From assembly GCF_054482525.1 (NCBI RefSeq), contig NZ_CM137006.1: a stretch of 64,000 nucleotides of DNA; one strand, given 5' to 3'. The position numbers were made by a program, and so were the translations under genes. Each line of letters starts with the position of its first letter. Position 1 is the first letter of the stretch. The notes beneath the pieces were generated by a model that saw nothing but the letters and a program-made list of their open reading frames with translations, had not been told where the DNA came from and ran no database searches. Positions 11,000 through 17,371 of this stretch are shown one piece after another.

Positions 11000-11145
11000 C
11001 TGAAACGGGAAAGCCCCTCCCGAGGAAGGGGCCATAAATAAGGAAAGGGTCATGATGAAGCTACTCATCATCGTGGTGCTCTTAGTCATTAGCTACCCAG
11101 CATACTAAGACTACCAGGGCGGGGGAAACCCCGCTCTACCCTCAC
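11000..11145 (-). ncRNA. sibB: Sib-family antisense sRNA (antitoxin) overlapping ibsB; boundaries approximate
   Basis: A minus-strand promoter-like element lies downstream of the ibs stop (TTGACA as reverse complement of 11174-11179; weak -10 near 11151-11156). A minus-strand hairpin followed by a U-rich tract lies near 11000-11040. The extent is inferred, not mapped. Confidence 0.4.
11052..11108 (+). CDS. ibsB: Ibs-family type I toxin, 18-aa hydrophobic peptide (MMKLLIIVVLLVISYPAY)
   Basis: Hand-translated ORF preceded by the SD-like AGGAAAGGG. The peptide matches the Ibs toxin family. The A/B assignment is from memory of the K-12 peptides and the copy nearest mdtA. Confidence 0.75.
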   Translation: MMKLLIIVVLLVISYPAY

Positions 11146-11329
11146 TCCTGAAAGTATGCCTTCACGATAAGATTGTCAATCTGCAGGCTTTGCAGTCTGC
11201 GATCCTGCCAGCAAATATTCTTTGCGAGACGTTACGCAATAATCACACTGGAAACTATTTTATCCGCAAGTCAGCGATAGACTGCATACAGGGCGAAAGG
11301 AGGTAAGCCGACGATTTCAGCGGGACGCT

Positions 11330-11480
11330 GAAACGGGAAACCCTCTCCCGGAGAAGAGGGCTTTTAATAAGGAAAGGGTTATGATGAAGCACGTCATCAT
11401 ACTGGTGATACTCTTAGTGATTAGCTTCCAGGCTTACTAAGAACACCAGGGGGAGGGGGAAACCTCTCCCTAACCCTCAC
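11330..11480 (-). ncRNA. sibA: Sib-family antisense sRNA (antitoxin) overlapping ibsA; boundaries approximate
   Basis: Same architecture as the first unit: minus-strand -35-like TTGACA (reverse complement of 11509-11514) and the hairpin CCCTCT...AGAGGG at ~11341-11360. Confidence 0.4.
11381..11440 (+). CDS. ibsA: Ibs-family type I toxin, 19-aa hydrophobic peptide (MMKHVIILVILLVISFQAY)
   Basis: Hand-translated ORF in the second repeat unit, with an SD-like GGAAAGGG upstream. Confidence 0.75.
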   Translation: MMKHVIILVILLVISFQAY

Positions 11481-11660
11481 TCCTGAAATTATGTCACTCC
11501 GCCCTTAGTGTCAATCGACGGCTCTCCGTTCTTGCGAGGCGAATAGCAAAATTTTCTGCGCCGCCGGGCCTAATTCTGAAAGTTTCTTCGTTTGCTCTTA
11601 TTTCATTGTTGCAGTCGGTATGATACCGGACCTCGATAATTCTCTAAGAAAGGATTTCTT

Positions 11661-12320
11661 ATGAGCGAACAAATCACGTTTGCCACCAGCGATTTTGCCA
11701 GTAACCCGGAACCACGTTGCCCCTGCATTTTGCTGCTGGATGTTTCTGGCTCGATGAGCGGCAGACCTATTAATGAACTTAATGCCGGATTGGTTACCTT
11801 TCGCGATGAGCTGCTTGCCGACCCGCTGGCCTTAAAAAGAGTGGAACTCGGTATTGTGACGTTCGGCCCGGTGCATGTGGAACAACCATTTACCAGCGCC
11901 GCTAATTTTTTCCCGCCCATCCTGTTTGCCCAGGGCGATACACCAATGGGCGCCGCCATTACCAAAGCCCTGGATATGGTTGAGGAGCGCAAACGTGAGT
12001 ATCGCGCCAATGGTATTTCCTATTATCGTCCGTGGATTTTCCTGATCACTGATGGCGCACCAACCGATGAGTGGCAGGCTGCCGCCAACAAAGTGTTTCA
12101 GGGGGAAGAAGATAAGAAGTTTGCCTTCTTTTCCATCGGTGTTCAGGGGGCGGATATGAAGACTTTGGCACAAATCAGCGTTCGTCAGCCTTTGCCACTG
12201 CAGGGATTACAATTCCGTGAACTGTTTAGCTGGTTATCCAGTTCGCTGCGTTCGGTTTCCCGCTCCACGCCGGGAACTGAAGTTGTGCTGGAAGCGCCAA
12301 AAGGCTGGACGTCAGTGTGA
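11661..12320 (+). CDS. yegL: von Willebrand factor A (VWA) domain protein, TerY-like
   Basis: 219-aa ORF with a MIDAS-type motif ([11 protein letters not shown]) and downstream ...TPMGAAI... / ...LITDGAPTD..., typical of VWA domains. Its stop overlaps the start of the next gene. Confidence 0.85.
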
Positions 12321-13078
12321 GCTGGCGTCTGGTCTATGCATCAACCGTTGGAACGTCGCACATCAGCGCGGACTTGCCTTGCCAGGATGCCTGCCAGATG
12401 CAGGTTGCCTGGTTAAATGACCAGCAGCCATTATTGTCGGTATTTGTCGCTGATGGCGCAGGCAGTGTCTCGCAGGGTGGCGAAGGCGCGATGCTCGCCG
12501 TCAATGAAGCGATGGCTTATATGTCGCAAAAAGTGCAGGGCGGGGAATTGGGGCTTAATGATGTCCTCGCCACGGATATTGTGCTGACCATTCGTCAGCG
12601 ACTTTTTGCCGAGGCAGAGGCCAAAGAATTAGCGGTTCGCGATTTTGCCTGCACATTTCTGGGACTGATTTCATCGCCTGACGGCACCTTGATTATGCAG
12701 ATTGGCGATGGCGGCGTGGTGGTAGATTTGGGTCACGGTCTGCAATTGCCTCTCACGCCGATGGTGGGTGAATATGCCAATATGACGCACTTCATTACCG
12801 ACGAAGATGCCGTTTCCAGACTGGAAACTTACACCAGTACTGAGCGTGCGCATAAAGTTGCAGCATTTACGGATGGTATTCAGAGGCTGGCGTTAAATAT
12901 GTTGAATAATTCTCCGCATGTGCCTTTTTTTACCCCGTTTTTCAATGGACTGGCGTCAGCAACGCAGGAACAACTCGATTTATTACCTGAATTGTTAAAG
13001 CAGTTTTTGTCCGGCCCGGCGGTAAACGAGCGTACCGATGATGATAAAACGTTGGCACTGGCGCTGTGGTTACCATGA
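12317..13078 (+). CDS. yegK: PP2C-family serine/threonine protein phosphatase
   Basis: 253-aa ORF with a GTG start overlapping the yegL stop (GTGA). PP2C metal-binding motifs [15 protein letters not shown] and ...FTDGIQ... are present. Confidence 0.85.
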
Positions 13079-15015
13079 AACCCACTTTATATACTGCTAC
13101 TGGTGAGTGCGTTACGCCAGGCTGTGAACTGGGCAAAGGTGGCGAAGGCGCGGTTTATGATATCGAGGAGTTTGTCGATAGCGTCGCCAAGATTTATCAC
13201 ACGCCGCCACCCGCCTTAAAACAGGACAAACTTGCCTTTATGGCTGCGACAGCTGATGCGCAGTTGCTGAATTATGTCGCCTGGCCGCAGGCAACGCTTC
13301 ACGGTGGACGAGGCGGAAAAGTTATCGGTTTTATGATGCCAAAAGTTTCTGGTAAAGAACCGATTCATATGATCTATAGCCCGGCACATCGTCGCCAGAG
13401 TTACCCTCATTGTGCGTGGGATTTTCTACTCTATGTTGCGCGCAATATTGCGTCATCTTTTGCTACGGTTCACGAGCACGGGCATGTCGTGGGTGACGTA
13501 AACCAGAACAGCTTTATGGTAGGCCGTGACAGCAAAGTGGTATTGATTGATAGCGACTCCTTTCAGATTAACGCCAATGGAACGCTGCATTTATGCGAAG
13601 TCGGCGTGTCGCATTTTACGCCGCCAGAGCTGCAAACATTGCCATCATTTGTCGGCTTTGAACGCACCGCGAATCACGATAATTTTGGCCTTGCGTTGCT
13701 GATTTTTCACGTCTTGTTTGGTGGTCGGCATCCTTATTCCGGTGTACCGCTTATCTCTGATGCGGGTAATGCGCTGGAGACGGATATTGCCCATTTCCGT
13801 TATGCCTACGCGTCAGATAATCAGCGACGTGGTTTAAAACCGCCGCCACGATCGATACCGCTGTCGATGTTACCGGGCGATGTTGAAGCCATGTTTCAGC
13901 AGGCATTCACGGAAAGTGGCGTGGCAACCGGGCGTCCGACGGCAAAAGCGTGGGTATCAGCACTGGATTCTCTACGCCAACAGTTAAAGAAATGTACCGT
14001 TTCGGCAATGCATGTTTATCCTGCTCATTTGACCGACTGCCCGTGGTGTACGCTGGATAATCAAGGCGTTATCTATTTTATTGATCTCGGCGAAGAGGTC
14101 ATTACCACCAGTGGTGATTTTGTGCTGGCGAAAGTCTGGGCGATGGTGATGGCGTCAGTAGCACCGCCAGCATTGCAATTGCCATTACCCGATCATTTCC
14201 AACCGACTGGCCGGCCGCTTCCTTTAGGCCTGTTACGGCGCGAATACATCATTCTGATTGAGATCGCACTGTCAGCTTTATCGCTGTTGCTTTGCGGTCT
14301 TCAGGCAGAACCGCGTTATATTATTTTGGTTCCTGTGCTGGCGGCTATCTGGATTATTGGCAGTCTGACAAGCAAAGCTTATAAAGCAGAAATCCAGCAA
14401 CGCCGTGAGGCATTTAATCGCGCGAAAATGGACTATGACCATTTAGTCAGCCAGATCCAGCAGGTGGGCGGGCTGGAAGGTTTTATCGCCAAACGGACGA
14501 TGCTCGAAAAAATGAAGGACGAAATGCTCGGGTTACCGGAAGAAGAAAAACGTGCTCTGGCAGCACTTCACGACACCGCAAGGGAACGGCAGAAGCAGAA
14601 GTTTCTGGAGGGATTTTTTATTGATGTTGCCTCTATTCCCGGCGTTGGCCCTGCGCGTAAAGCGGCGTTACGGTCCTTTGGTATTGAAACAGCAGCGGAT
14701 GTTACCCGTCGTGGGGTTAAGCAAGTGAAAGGGTTTGGTGATCATCTGACCCAGGCGGTTATCGACTGGAAAGCGAGTTGCGAACGCCGTTTTGTGTTCA
14801 GGCCGAACGAAGCGGTAACGCCTGCAGACAGACAAGCGGTAATGGCAAAAATGACCGCCAAACGACATCGGCTGGAATCGGCGTTGACTGTCGGCGCGAC
14901 AGAGTTGCAGCGATTCCGCCTTCATGCTCCAGCACGGACCATGCCGTTGATGGAACCGTTACGTCAGGCGGCAGAAAAACTGGCTCAGGCGCAGGCTGAT
15001 TTAAGCCGTTGCTGA
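13075..15015 (+). CDS. yegI: Hanks-type Ser/Thr protein kinase-like protein with a predicted membrane segment and C-terminal helix-hairpin-helix-like motifs
   Basis: The ATG at 13075 overlaps the yegK stop (ATGA); the ORF track uses an in-frame GTG at 13066. Kinase-like motifs: glycine loop LGKGGEGAVY, VAK lysine, catalytic loop HVVGDVNQNSF, LIDSDSF. Hydrophobic stretch ...IILIEIALSALSLLLCGL...ILVPVLAAIWIIGSL..., then HhH-like GVGPARKAALRSFG and VKGFGDHL. Confidence 0.85.
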   Translation: MKPTLYTATGECVTPGCELGKGGEGAVYDIEEFVDSVAKIYHTPPPALKQDKLAFMAATADAQLLNYVAWPQATLHGGRGGKVIGFMMPKVSGKEPIHMIYSPAHRRQSYPHCAWDFLLYVARNIASSFATVHEHGHVVGDVNQNSFMVGRDSKVVLIDSDSFQINANGTLHLCEVGVSHFTPPELQTLPSFVGFERTANHDNFGLALLIFHVLFGGRHPYSGVPLISDAGNALETDIAHFRYAYASDNQRRGLKPPPRSIPLSMLPGDVEAMFQQAFTESGVATGRPTAKAWVSALDSLRQQLKKCTVSAMHVYPAHLTDCPWCTLDNQGVIYFIDLGEEVITTSGDFVLAKVWAMVMASVAPPALQLPLPDHFQPTGRPLPLGLLRREYIILIEIALSALSLLLCGLQAEPRYIILVPVLAAIWIIGSLTSKAYKAEIQQRREAFNRAKMDYDHLVSQIQQVGGLEGFIAKRTMLEKMKDEMLGLPEEEKRALAALHDTARERQKQKFLEGFFIDVASIPGVGPARKAALRSFGIETAADVTRRGVKQVKGFGDHLTQAVIDWKASCERRFVFRPNEAVTPADRQAVMAKMTAKRHRLESALTVGATELQRFRLHAPARTMPLMEPLRQAAEKLAQAQADLSRC

Positions 15016-15027
15016 GCCAGTTTTCAA

Positions 15028-16380
15028 TTAACGAAACACCACTTCCGCCCAGCGTGCCAGCCCGGCGGTGACGGAGCCAAAGTCATCGCCACCTGCAATC
15101 GGAATGCCCGGCAACTGTTCTGTCAGCGCTTTTTTAATCAGCGGTGAACGGGCGCTACCGCCAGTTAGGTAGATAACGTCCGGTTTTTCCTGGGCGTTAT
15201 CCAGCGCCAGTTGCACCTGTTCCAGAATCCGCGCCAGTGGCTGGTTGAGGGCGCTTTCCAGCCCTTGCTGGCTAATCAGCGTAGCCAGTTCATCGCTGAT
15301 AAACGGTAGTGAGGCGCGGGTTTCCGCTACGCTTGAAAGGGCGATTTTGCTCTCTTCTGCACTGCGCACCAGGCGATAGCTTAAACGCTGACGCCAGACT
15401 TTCTGTAACAGGGCCACTTTTTCCGGTTCGCGGGCATCGCGTACCAGATCGTTAAGCAGACGACCGTTGGCACTACTGTAGAAATCACTTTGCGCAGGTA
15501 CGTCGTTGATGGCAACCGCATTCCACCACGGCAGAATCGGCAGGGCGATGCCTTTTTCGGTTTCGCCACCCATGCCAAGTAACGGCATCAGGTTTTTAAA
15601 CGCCAGCGCGATATCCAGATCGTTACCACCAATACGGCAACCACTGTGACCCAGCAGGCTGGCTTCACGATCGAGACGCGAACGCCACTGCGGCCCCATC
15701 AGCAGCAATGAACAGTCAGTCGTACCACCGCCGATATCCACCACCAGCACCCGTTTTTCTTCCTGCAAGGTGGCTTCGTAATCCAGCCCAGCCGCGACCG
15801 GCTCGTACTGGAATACCACATCCTTAAACCCGGCACGCTTTGCCGCGCGTTCCAGAATCCCTTGCGCCTGGGTGTTTGCTTCATCGCCGCCCAGCCCCTG
15901 GAAGTTGATCGGGCGACCAATCACCGCCTGAGTAATCGCATCCGGCAGCTGCGCCTGCGCCTGCTGGCGAATGTGCAACATCATTGCGCAGACCAGATCC
16001 TCAAACAGCGCTACCTGCTGCGGTTTTAAGCCGCTGGCACCGAGGAATGATTTTGGTGATTTCACAAACCACACCTCTTCTGGATCATCAATGTACTGTG
16101 CCAGTGAGGAAAGACCGAACTGCACGCTTTTCGCCGTAACATCGATATCTTCTTCGCGGTTATAACGAATCGCCCGACGCAACAGCGCCTGCGTTTCATC
16201 GTCGTCTGCCGGAACATCATGATGGCGGTACAGCCATTCGCTTACCGCTTCACGCGTTGGCGCGCAAAGCATTGAAGGCAGCAGCGTGCTGTCGTTTTCC
16301 ATTTTCAGTAATTGCGGCTTACCGTCGCGCATGACCGCCACTGAACAGTTTGCTGTACCGTAATCAAAACCAATAAACAC
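15028..16380 (-). CDS. yegD: Hsp70/actin-fold ATPase family protein (DnaK-like, lacking the substrate-binding domain)
   Basis: The ORF track gives 471 aa. I place the start at a GTG (reverse complement of 16378-16380) giving 450 aa beginning FIGFDYGTANCSVAV, the Hsp70 phosphate-1 motif; later motifs VVDIGGGTTD and DVIYLTGGSARSPLI are present. Confidence 0.8.
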   Translation of the reverse strand: MFIGFDYGTANCSVAVMRDGKPQLLKMENDSTLLPSMLCAPTREAVSEWLYRHHDVPADDDETQALLRRAIRYNREEDIDVTAKSVQFGLSSLAQYIDDPEEVWFVKSPKSFLGASGLKPQQVALFEDLVCAMMLHIRQQAQAQLPDAITQAVIGRPINFQGLGGDEANTQAQGILERAAKRAGFKDVVFQYEPVAAGLDYEATLQEEKRVLVVDIGGGTTDCSLLLMGPQWRSRLDREASLLGHSGCRIGGNDLDIALAFKNLMPLLGMGGETEKGIALPILPWWNAVAINDVPAQSDFYSSANGRLLNDLVRDAREPEKVALLQKVWRQRLSYRLVRSAEESKIALSSVAETRASLPFISDELATLISQQGLESALNQPLARILEQVQLALDNAQEKPDVIYLTGGSARSPLIKKALTEQLPGIPIAGGDDFGSVTAGLARWAEVVFR

Positions 16381-16513: not shown

Positions 16514-17371
16514 ATGTATACCCTGAACTGGCAGCCGCCATATGACTGGTCGTGGATGTTGGGATTTCTCGCCGCCCGTGCGGTGAACGGTGTGGAAACG
16601 GTCGCTGACGATTATTATGCCCGTAGTCTGGCGGTGGGCGAATATCGCGGCGTGGTGACTGCTATTCCGGATATAGCCCGCCATACTCTGCACATAAATT
16701 TAAGTGCAGGTTTAGAACCTGTTGCCGCAGAGTGTCTGGCGAAAATGAGCCGCCTGTTTGATCTGCAATGTAACCCGCAGATTGTTAACGGTGCGTTGGG
16801 CAAGTTAGGCGCGGCGCGGCCCGGATTGCGTTTACCCGGCAGTGTTGATGCTTTTGAGCAGGGCGTGCGGGCGATTTTAGGCCAACTGGTGAGCGTGGCG
16901 ATGGCGGCAAAATTGACCGCCAGAGTGGCACAGCTTTATGGCGAACGGCTGGATGATTTTCCGGATTATGTCTGCTTCCCCACGCCTCAGCGGCTGGCTG
17001 CAGCCGACCCGCAGGCATTAAAAGCGTTAGGTATGCCGTTGAAACGGGCAGAGGCACTGATTCATCTGGCAAATGCGGCGCTGGAGGGCACCTTACCAAT
17101 GACAATTCCGGGCGACGTAGAGCAAGCGATGAAAACGCTGCAAACTTTTCCGGGTATCGGGCGCTGGACGGCGAATTATTTCGCCTTACGTGGCTGGCAG
17201 GCGAAAGATGTTTTCCTGCCGGATGATTATCTGATTAAACAGCGATTTCCGGGAATGACACCGGCACAAATCCGCCGTTATGCCGAACGCTGGAAGCCCT
17301 GGCGTTCTTATGCGCTGTTGCATATCTGGTATACGGAAGGCTGGCAACCAGACGGAACGGACGAATTGTAG
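16514..17371 (+). CDS. alkA: DNA-3-methyladenine glycosylase II
   Basis: 285-aa ORF starting MYTLNWQPPYDWSWMLGFLAARAV, with an HhH-GPD glycosylase signature (FPGIGRWTANYFALRG). The 285-aa length agrees with my recollection of AlkA (~282 aa). Confidence 0.9.
   Translation: MYTLNWQPPYDWSWMLGFLAARAVNGVETVADDYYARSLAVGEYRGVVTAIPDIARHTLHINLSAGLEPVAAECLAKMSRLFDLQCNPQIVNGALGKLGAARPGLRLPGSVDAFEQGVRAILGQLVSVAMAAKLTARVAQLYGERLDDFPDYVCFPTPQRLAAADPQALKALGMPLKRAEALIHLANAALEGTLPMTIPGDVEQAMKTLQTFPGIGRWTANYFALRGWQAKDVFLPDDYLIKQRFPGMTPAQIRRYAERWKPWRSYALLHIWYTEGWQPDGTDEL

Follow-up and report, generated by a model that had tools for sequence, protein, structure and literature searches.

The compact pphC-yegI junction of Escherichia coli PCN033 is the majority and probably ancestral form of a site that carries a yegJ cassette in K-12

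The closest described counterparts of the locus studied here are the yegL-pphC-yegI operons of E. coli B REL606 and O157:H7, which have the same gene order, the same ATGA overlap between phosphatase and kinase genes and the same absence of yegJ. The difference in layout between REL606 and MG1655 was described in 2018 (Rajagopalan, Nagle & Dworkin, 10.1101/303594), the pphC/yegI ATGA overlap of REL606 and O157:H7 was reported in 2020 (Rajagopalan & Dworkin, 10.1101/819920), and the layout difference was described again in 2026 in a paper that states that yegJ occurs in K strains only (PMC13232886). The layout difference and its ATGA overlap are therefore already known. Regarding the gene products, YegI is an active Ser/Thr kinase of the inner membrane with a two-pass topology (10.1101/819920) and is dephosphorylated by PphC (10.1101/303594), and expression of the locus was not detected in any condition tried (10.1101/303594; PMC13232886). 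The new elements of the present analysis are the exact boundaries of the exchanged DNA, the apparently chimeric N-terminus of K-12 YegI, the frequencies of both forms in the population, the probable single origin and recombinational spread of the K-12 form, and a polarity backed by outgroups. These details are useful footnotes rather than discoveries, relevant mainly to workers on YegI, PphC or YegJ and of little weight for discovery.

The second system with which the operon can be compared is the TerY-P triad (Anantharaman, Iyer & Aravind 2012), which also has a version that acts in defence (Gao et al. 2020; both as described in PMC11090510 and PMC7699616). Both are cassettes of three tightly packed genes that are patchily distributed across phyla and encode a vWA protein similar to TerY, a phosphatase of the PP2C type and a C-terminally extended Ser/Thr kinase, the kinase of the E. 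coli operon being known as such from its published activity. The extension itself differs, since the TerY-P kinase ends in a zinc ribbon or, in the version that acts in defence, in an OB fold (PMC11090510), whereas the C-terminal part of YegI is composed of a two-pass membrane segment and a helix-hairpin-helix region. When the TerY-P models of PADLOC 2.0 were used, YegL matched TerY with only E=0.013 (13 bits), PphC gave no match and YegI matched unrelated kinase models only, so that an assignment of the operon to the PADLOC defence systems was not supported. The yegL-pphC-yegI operon thus appears TerY-P-like in design and is at most a candidate member of the validated defence family, and to our knowledge no phage-defence phenotype is associated with it.

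The window, which is the whole stretch of 64,000 nucleotides analysed here (contig NZ_CM137006.1, assembly GCF_054482525.1), matches the E. coli PCN033 chromosome with 100% identity between positions 11600 and 16450, and the RefSeq annotation of this chromosome was moved to window coordinates (Table 1). The genes yegL, pphC and yegI share a strand and are flanked by the ibs/sib loci and yegD, all genes were recovered by tblastn, and the proteins have 96-99% identity to those of K-12. The original prediction had proposed that the phosphatase stop and the kinase start overlap as ATGA, and this is what the sequence reads, with the pphC TGA at 13076-13078 and the yegI ATG at 13075-13077. The preceding junction is organised in the same manner, with the yegL stop and the GTG start of pphC sharing a 4-nt GTGA (12317-12320). 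The 4-nt ATGA is the commonest overlap type for co-directional bacterial genes, so the overlap itself is ordinary. The prediction had also placed only 12 bp between the stops of the kinase gene and the convergent yegD, with no room for an additional gene around the kinase, and both points were confirmed: the last base of the yegI TGA is 15015, the TAA of yegD on the reverse strand begins at 15028, and the ORF list of the window contains around the kinase no ORF of at least 40 aa other than overlapping antisense or alternative-frame ones. Neither this list nor tblastn revealed a DUF2314/YegJ-type ORF in the window interval. Upstream of yegI the window has no recognisable Shine-Dalgarno sequence, and a promoter scan of the window, which provides consensus-level hints only, predicted no promoter between pphC and yegI.

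Table 1. Features of the yegL-pphC-yegI region in window coordinates.
Feature	Coordinates	Strand	Description	Basis
yegL	11661-12320	+	vWA (TerY-like) protein, triad gene 1	RefSeq; Pfam VWA E=6.4e-10, VWA_2 E=3.4e-7
pphC (yegK)	12317-13078	+	PP2C-type Ser/Thr phosphatase	RefSeq; Pfam PP2C_2 E=6.4e-53
Junction segment, 56 bp	13070-13125	+	Probably ancestral; swapped for the 791-bp yegJ cassette in K-12-type strains	Pairwise and multiple alignments
ATGA overlap of pphC stop and yegI start	13075-13078	+	Putative translational-coupling junction	Read from sequence
yegI	13075-15015	+	Membrane Ser/Thr kinase, C-terminal helix-hairpin-helix region	RefSeq; Pfam HHH_5 weak
Spacer between convergent yegI and yegD stops	15016-15027	.	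12 nt	Read from sequence
yegD	15028-16380	-	Hsp70-family chaperone, convergent neighbour	NCBIfam NF008673 E=3.8e-244; Pfam HSP70
alkA	16514-17371	+		RefSeq annotation of PCN033

The domain searches with YegI gave no Pkinase match at E<=0.001, and models that contain a kinase domain matched weakly at best, although PF00069 is present in many YegI homologues. The sole Pfam match of the C-terminal part was HHH_5 with 20.1 bits, which is under the 27-bit cutoff of this model.

The K-12 layout was taken from the K-12 derivative DH5alpha, where yegJ (462 bp, 153 aa) lies between pphC and yegI on the opposite strand, so that the extra small gene named for K-12 in the original prediction does exist in this neighbourhood; its product belongs to DUF2314 (PF10077, E=2.2e-25). 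The N-terminus of YegJ and the lipobox of its relatives would suggest a periplasmic location, and an RNase E study took the protein to be cytosolic. The alignment of both intervals is not collinear and contains an indel with defined boundaries that makes the K-12 interval 735 bp longer. In the pairwise alignment, 791 bp of K-12 (L001 2971-3761) stand against 56 bp of the window (13070-13125). On the left, identity stops after a Trp codon that ends at window 13069, and on the right it restarts at GAACTGGGCAAAGG (window 13126), the beginning of the glycine-rich loop of the kinase. The swapped segment therefore covers the last two codons of pphC and the first 17 codons of yegI, and the K-12 difference is a replacement and not a clean insertion, with the 5' end of yegI rewritten too. 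The flanking genes are common to both arrangements, as is the spacer between yegI and yegD, identical in length (12 bp) in K-12, which locates the extra gene upstream of the kinase and not at its 3' end.

Five parts can be distinguished in the K-12 cassette. It begins with the final codons of pphC, which encode Ala-Glu in K-12 and Leu-Pro in the window with the position of the stop unchanged, followed by a hairpin with an 11-bp stem (-21.5 kcal/mol, z=-4.1); the reading of this hairpin as a canonical intrinsic terminator was rejected, since the U-tract is missing. The third part is yegJ itself, on the opposite strand, and the fourth an intergenic region of 199 bp with 29% G+C and many promoter-like hexamers; in the scanned cassette region 8 promoter-like sites were counted against 2.3 expected by chance, a scan that offers consensus-level hints only. 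The last part supplies 19 new first codons to yegI, which in K-12 is not overlapped by pphC and encodes a protein of 648 aa with a different N-terminus of 19 residues. The G+C content is 37.7% for the whole cassette and 51.7% for the surrounding operon and flanks, and the cassette is thus compositionally foreign.

The first 19 residues of K-12 YegI are MKTNIKVFTSTGELTTLGR. A codon-by-codon count on the pairwise alignment gave about 63% DNA identity between the K-12 and the native N-terminal codons. The K-12 residues fit the N-terminal pattern of the YegI family, F/Y-T-S-x-G-x4-L/I-G-R, which is found from Frankia to Burkholderiales, and the Escherichia-native N-terminus, with 16 residues followed by R or C, fits it less well. 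As the K-12 N-terminus follows the family-wide pattern yet departs from the Escherichia-native one, K-12 YegI appears to be a chimera, whose first 19 residues would come from another lineage of the yegI family. The search for such a donor covered the 79 PP2C-anchored loci obtained from 100,044 species genomes, the YegJ homologues with their contigs and the YegI kinase-domain homologues, and did not find the donor of the cassette in any of these sets. Outside E. coli, no locus in them carries a DUF2314 gene beside a yegI-type kinase, and none of these loci has the N-terminus of the K-12 type.

Of 5,426 complete E. coli genomes, 3,471 contained a full-length match to the 241-bp probe across the compact junction and 1,934 a match to the K-12 cassette (1,899 of them with a coverage of at least 80%), which leaves few genomes outside the two states (sum 5,405). 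Most E. coli thus have the compact form (64%) and a minority the K-12 form (36%), which means that K-12 is the unusual strain and not PCN033. The O157:H7 locus L093 is compact, as in the window. Many natural isolates of human, cattle, poultry and water origin are among the carriers of the cassette, and with about one third of the complete E. coli genomes carrying yegJ, the published restriction of this gene to K strains (PMC13232886) is too narrow. The cassette occupies a median of 1 and at most 2 places per genome; it is always chromosomal and, in nearly every carrier, present as a single copy.

These counts bear on whether the difference between the window and K-12 could stem from faulty assembly or annotation of one of the two genomes, for which we found nothing in favour and which we regard as practically impossible, since each of the two states recurs in well over a thousand complete genomes and the indel is visible in the DNA alignment independently of the annotation. 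The direction of the change was addressed by a PphC scan in which each of 100,044 species was represented by a single genome. Of the 79 resulting loci, 76, from many phyla, have the PP2C and kinase genes on one strand and were considered triad loci. Four non-coli Escherichia lineages, namely Escherichia sp. MOD1-EC7003, Escherichia sp. E1V33, E. whittamii and the divergent 'E. coli E69', have a compact junction in which the genes overlap as ATGA or GTGA; in these lineages the triad has the yegD/alkA context of the window and YegI has an N-terminus of the window's kind. Klebsiella spallanzanii, with about 63% protein identity, also keeps the ATGA overlap; its locus has neither yegD nor alkA. 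Over the whole set, the kinase starts between -10 and 100 nt from the PP2C end in 74 of the 76 triad loci, with a median gap of 10 nt, and a DUF2314 gene occurs in none of the 76. The overlaps in non-coli Escherichia and K. spallanzanii, the tight spacing of the distant triads and the absence of DUF2314 from them argue that the compact pphC/yegI junction is ancestral and the yegJ form derived, so that the polarity suggested as a possibility in the original prediction now has outgroup support and is no longer an assumption. The opposite polarity, in which E. coli would have started from the yegJ-containing K-12 form and PCN033 would have become compact by a deletion of yegJ, could appeal to the diversity of the cassette alleles, which differ by up to about 7% from that of K-12 and imply that the cassette is old, and to the yegJ homologue of Superficieibacter, which occupies the same yegD-mdtA interval. 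However, such a deletion would need to restore precisely the overlap of 4 nt as well as the N-terminal codons found in the four Escherichia lineages and K. spallanzanii, 74 of the 76 distant triads are contiguous and without DUF2314, and the cassette has a foreign composition. The outgroups effectively refute this alternative, to which we assign a very small probability.

With the compact form as the starting point, the way in which the cassette arrived and spread was considered. Its AT-rich and self-contained nature, with its own hairpin and the excess of promoter-like sites described above, and the presence in some strains of IS1 insertions at the yegJ cassette would suit a small mobile element, comparable to transposon or integron cargo, inserted at pphC/yegI possibly several times. 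Nevertheless, the cassette lacks target-site duplications or flanking direct repeats, terminal inverted repeats and a transposase, and its carriers almost universally hold one chromosomal copy. No genuine plasmid carries it: of the three matches to E. coli 'plasmids', two are on records as large as a chromosome (4.9 Mb) and the third is a partial match on a 365-kb record. Furthermore, the homologous but divergent yegI 5' end included in the cassette points to recombination with a donor bearing yegI and not to transposition. The boundaries are also identical in every allele examined, namely the four yegJ alleles of K-12, L086, L087 and L088, which lie up to about 7% from the K-12 cassette. Taken together, these observations make a mobile element very improbable, almost as much as an ancestral yegJ, and the shared boundaries indicate that the insert has a single origin. 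Regarding its spread, the flank haplotypes are unsorted by yegJ status: the yegL-pphC flank of the compact window is nearest to the yegJ-carrying strains L096 and L088 (2.1-2.4% divergence), and K-12 yegI diverges by 2.8% from a compact strain and by 2.1% from another yegJ-carrying strain. A clonal explanation of the yegJ distribution was rejected for this reason, and homologous recombination appears to have carried the polymorphism from one E. coli lineage to another.

Superficieibacter-like genomes, which have no triad, encode the nearest YegJ outside E. coli (75% identity) in the same chromosomal interval, with yegD on one side and mdtA on the other. The DNA identity between these genomes and E. 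coli is about 75% for yegJ and a similar 75-80% for the flanking yegD and mdtA, and the homology of the K-12 cassette to the Superficieibacter yegJ locus is limited to the CDS and about 18 nt upstream. From these comparisons, yegJ may be an old resident of the yegD-mdtA interval, or else this interval may have served repeatedly as a landing site.

Overall, we consider it highly probable that window positions 11661-15015 correspond to the intact ancestral yegL-pphC-yegI operon and that K-12 and about 36% of E. coli bear a derived cassette allele that arose once and was spread by recombination. Judging by the geometry of the genes, with 4-nt overlaps throughout and no Shine-Dalgarno sequence before yegI, the three genes would most likely be transcribed as one unit, and ribosomes terminating on pphC would restart at the overlapping yegI AUG. 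The level of the kinase would thereby be bound to the level of PphC, the phosphatase that removes its phosphate groups. The cassette of K-12-type strains would split the operon and abolish the coupling, leaving yegI behind an AT-rich region and in need of its own promoter and ribosome loading, and the kinase:phosphatase ratio should change. As the K-12 arrangement appears derived, belongs to a minority and combines a presumably uncoupled kinase with a foreign 19-residue N-terminus, results on expression or regulation obtained in K-12 may not transfer to most E. coli. A more far-reaching and speculative reading, which we hold to be improbable, is that the yegJ cassette is no neutral passenger and represents a long-maintained presence/absence polymorphism that switches the triad between a coupled state, with kinase and phosphatase co-translated, and an uncoupled one, in which an exported YegJ would act as partner or antagonist of YegI; on this view, the K-12-type N-terminus would be what is left of an ancient exchange with a yegI-bearing lineage absent from current samples.

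Finally, PCN033 carries an allele of the compact operon different from those of REL606 and O157:H7. Its DNA at this locus has only about 95-97% identity to almost all other E. coli, and residue 17 of its YegI is a Cys at a position where Arg is near-invariant elsewhere.

In the search with PphC, the closest relatives of the yegL-pphC-yegI triad outside Escherichia were found among the Burkholderiales (Piscinibacter, Herbaspirillum and others), with 55-66% PphC identity, together with one Klebsiella species and no other Enterobacteriaceae (loci L006-L026). Because the closest relatives are distributed in this way, Escherichia probably acquired the operon horizontally, as an island.

Within E. 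coli, pairwise nucleotide diversity across the 3 genes is high, reaching 2-6% when window positions 11661-15015 are compared with the K-12-type locus (L001) and with E. coli loci L086-L088 and L093-L096, and it comes close to the 5-9% that separates E. coli from the cryptic Escherichia clades. Only 3 of 5,425 records show at least 99% identity to PCN033 over 4.85 kb. This pattern fits a locus that undergoes recombination and on which diversifying selection may also act. The pphC gene of L027, from the GTDB species labelled 'E. coli E69', is strongly mosaic, differing from the window by 19% (about 20% over its last 300 bp) vs only 6-7% for the adjoining yegL and yegI, which suggests that pphC by itself was replaced in this lineage. 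At residue 17 of YegI, where Arg is present in most of the relatives seen, whether other E. coli or members of distant phyla, PCN033 carries Cys; the position is well conserved, and the substitution is one at the level of the strain.

Coordinates of features in the window and in the compared loci
Feature	Sequence	Position	Strand	Remarks
SIB antitoxin RNA	window	11037-11179	-	Rfam RF00113, 142 bits
SIB antitoxin RNA	window	11366-11514	-	Rfam RF00113, 150 bits
YegI codon 17, Cys (TGT)	window	13123-13125	+	directly N-terminal of ELGKGGEG glycine-rich loop
yegJ, K-12	L001	3044-3505	-	
pphC, 'E. coli E69'	L027	2980-3738		

The 2 SIB RNAs lie in the mdtA-yegL interval, antisense to ibs toxin ORFs, whose copy number depends on the strain: 1 in GF131, 2 in PCN033, K-12 and the O6:K2:H1 strain, and 3 in L086.

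Comparison of K-12 YegJ with homologues P0017, P0026, P0041, P0052 and P0061 revealed a signal-peptide-like start, MKKILLMLSLLFFTTAGFS/EV, and more distant relatives carry a lipoprotein-type Cys (for example, LLSGC or LVGC); since both features are present, the family looks exported, as predicted from its sequences. This prediction sits awkwardly with the 2026 RNase E interaction study, in which YegJ was taken as cytosolic. If true, export might account for the membrane damage that follows YegJ overproduction.

Across the Enterobacteriaceae, the interval between yegD and mdtA has the look of a variable hotspot. In the Superficieibacter-like genomes L082 and L090, a 75%-identical yegJ is placed immediately between yegD and mdtA, and the vWA-PP2C-kinase triad is absent; in S. 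electus, yegJ is followed by the T6SS-type immunity/effector genes SUKH_5, Tli3, Tle3_C and Imm52. Some yegJ-positive E. coli strains (NZ_CP063473.1 and NZ_CP080075.1; hits H41 and H57/H26) carry an IS1 element at the yegJ cassette, and yegJ is therefore dispensable in them; in NZ_CP063473.1, IS1 cuts the gene into 2 annotated pieces.
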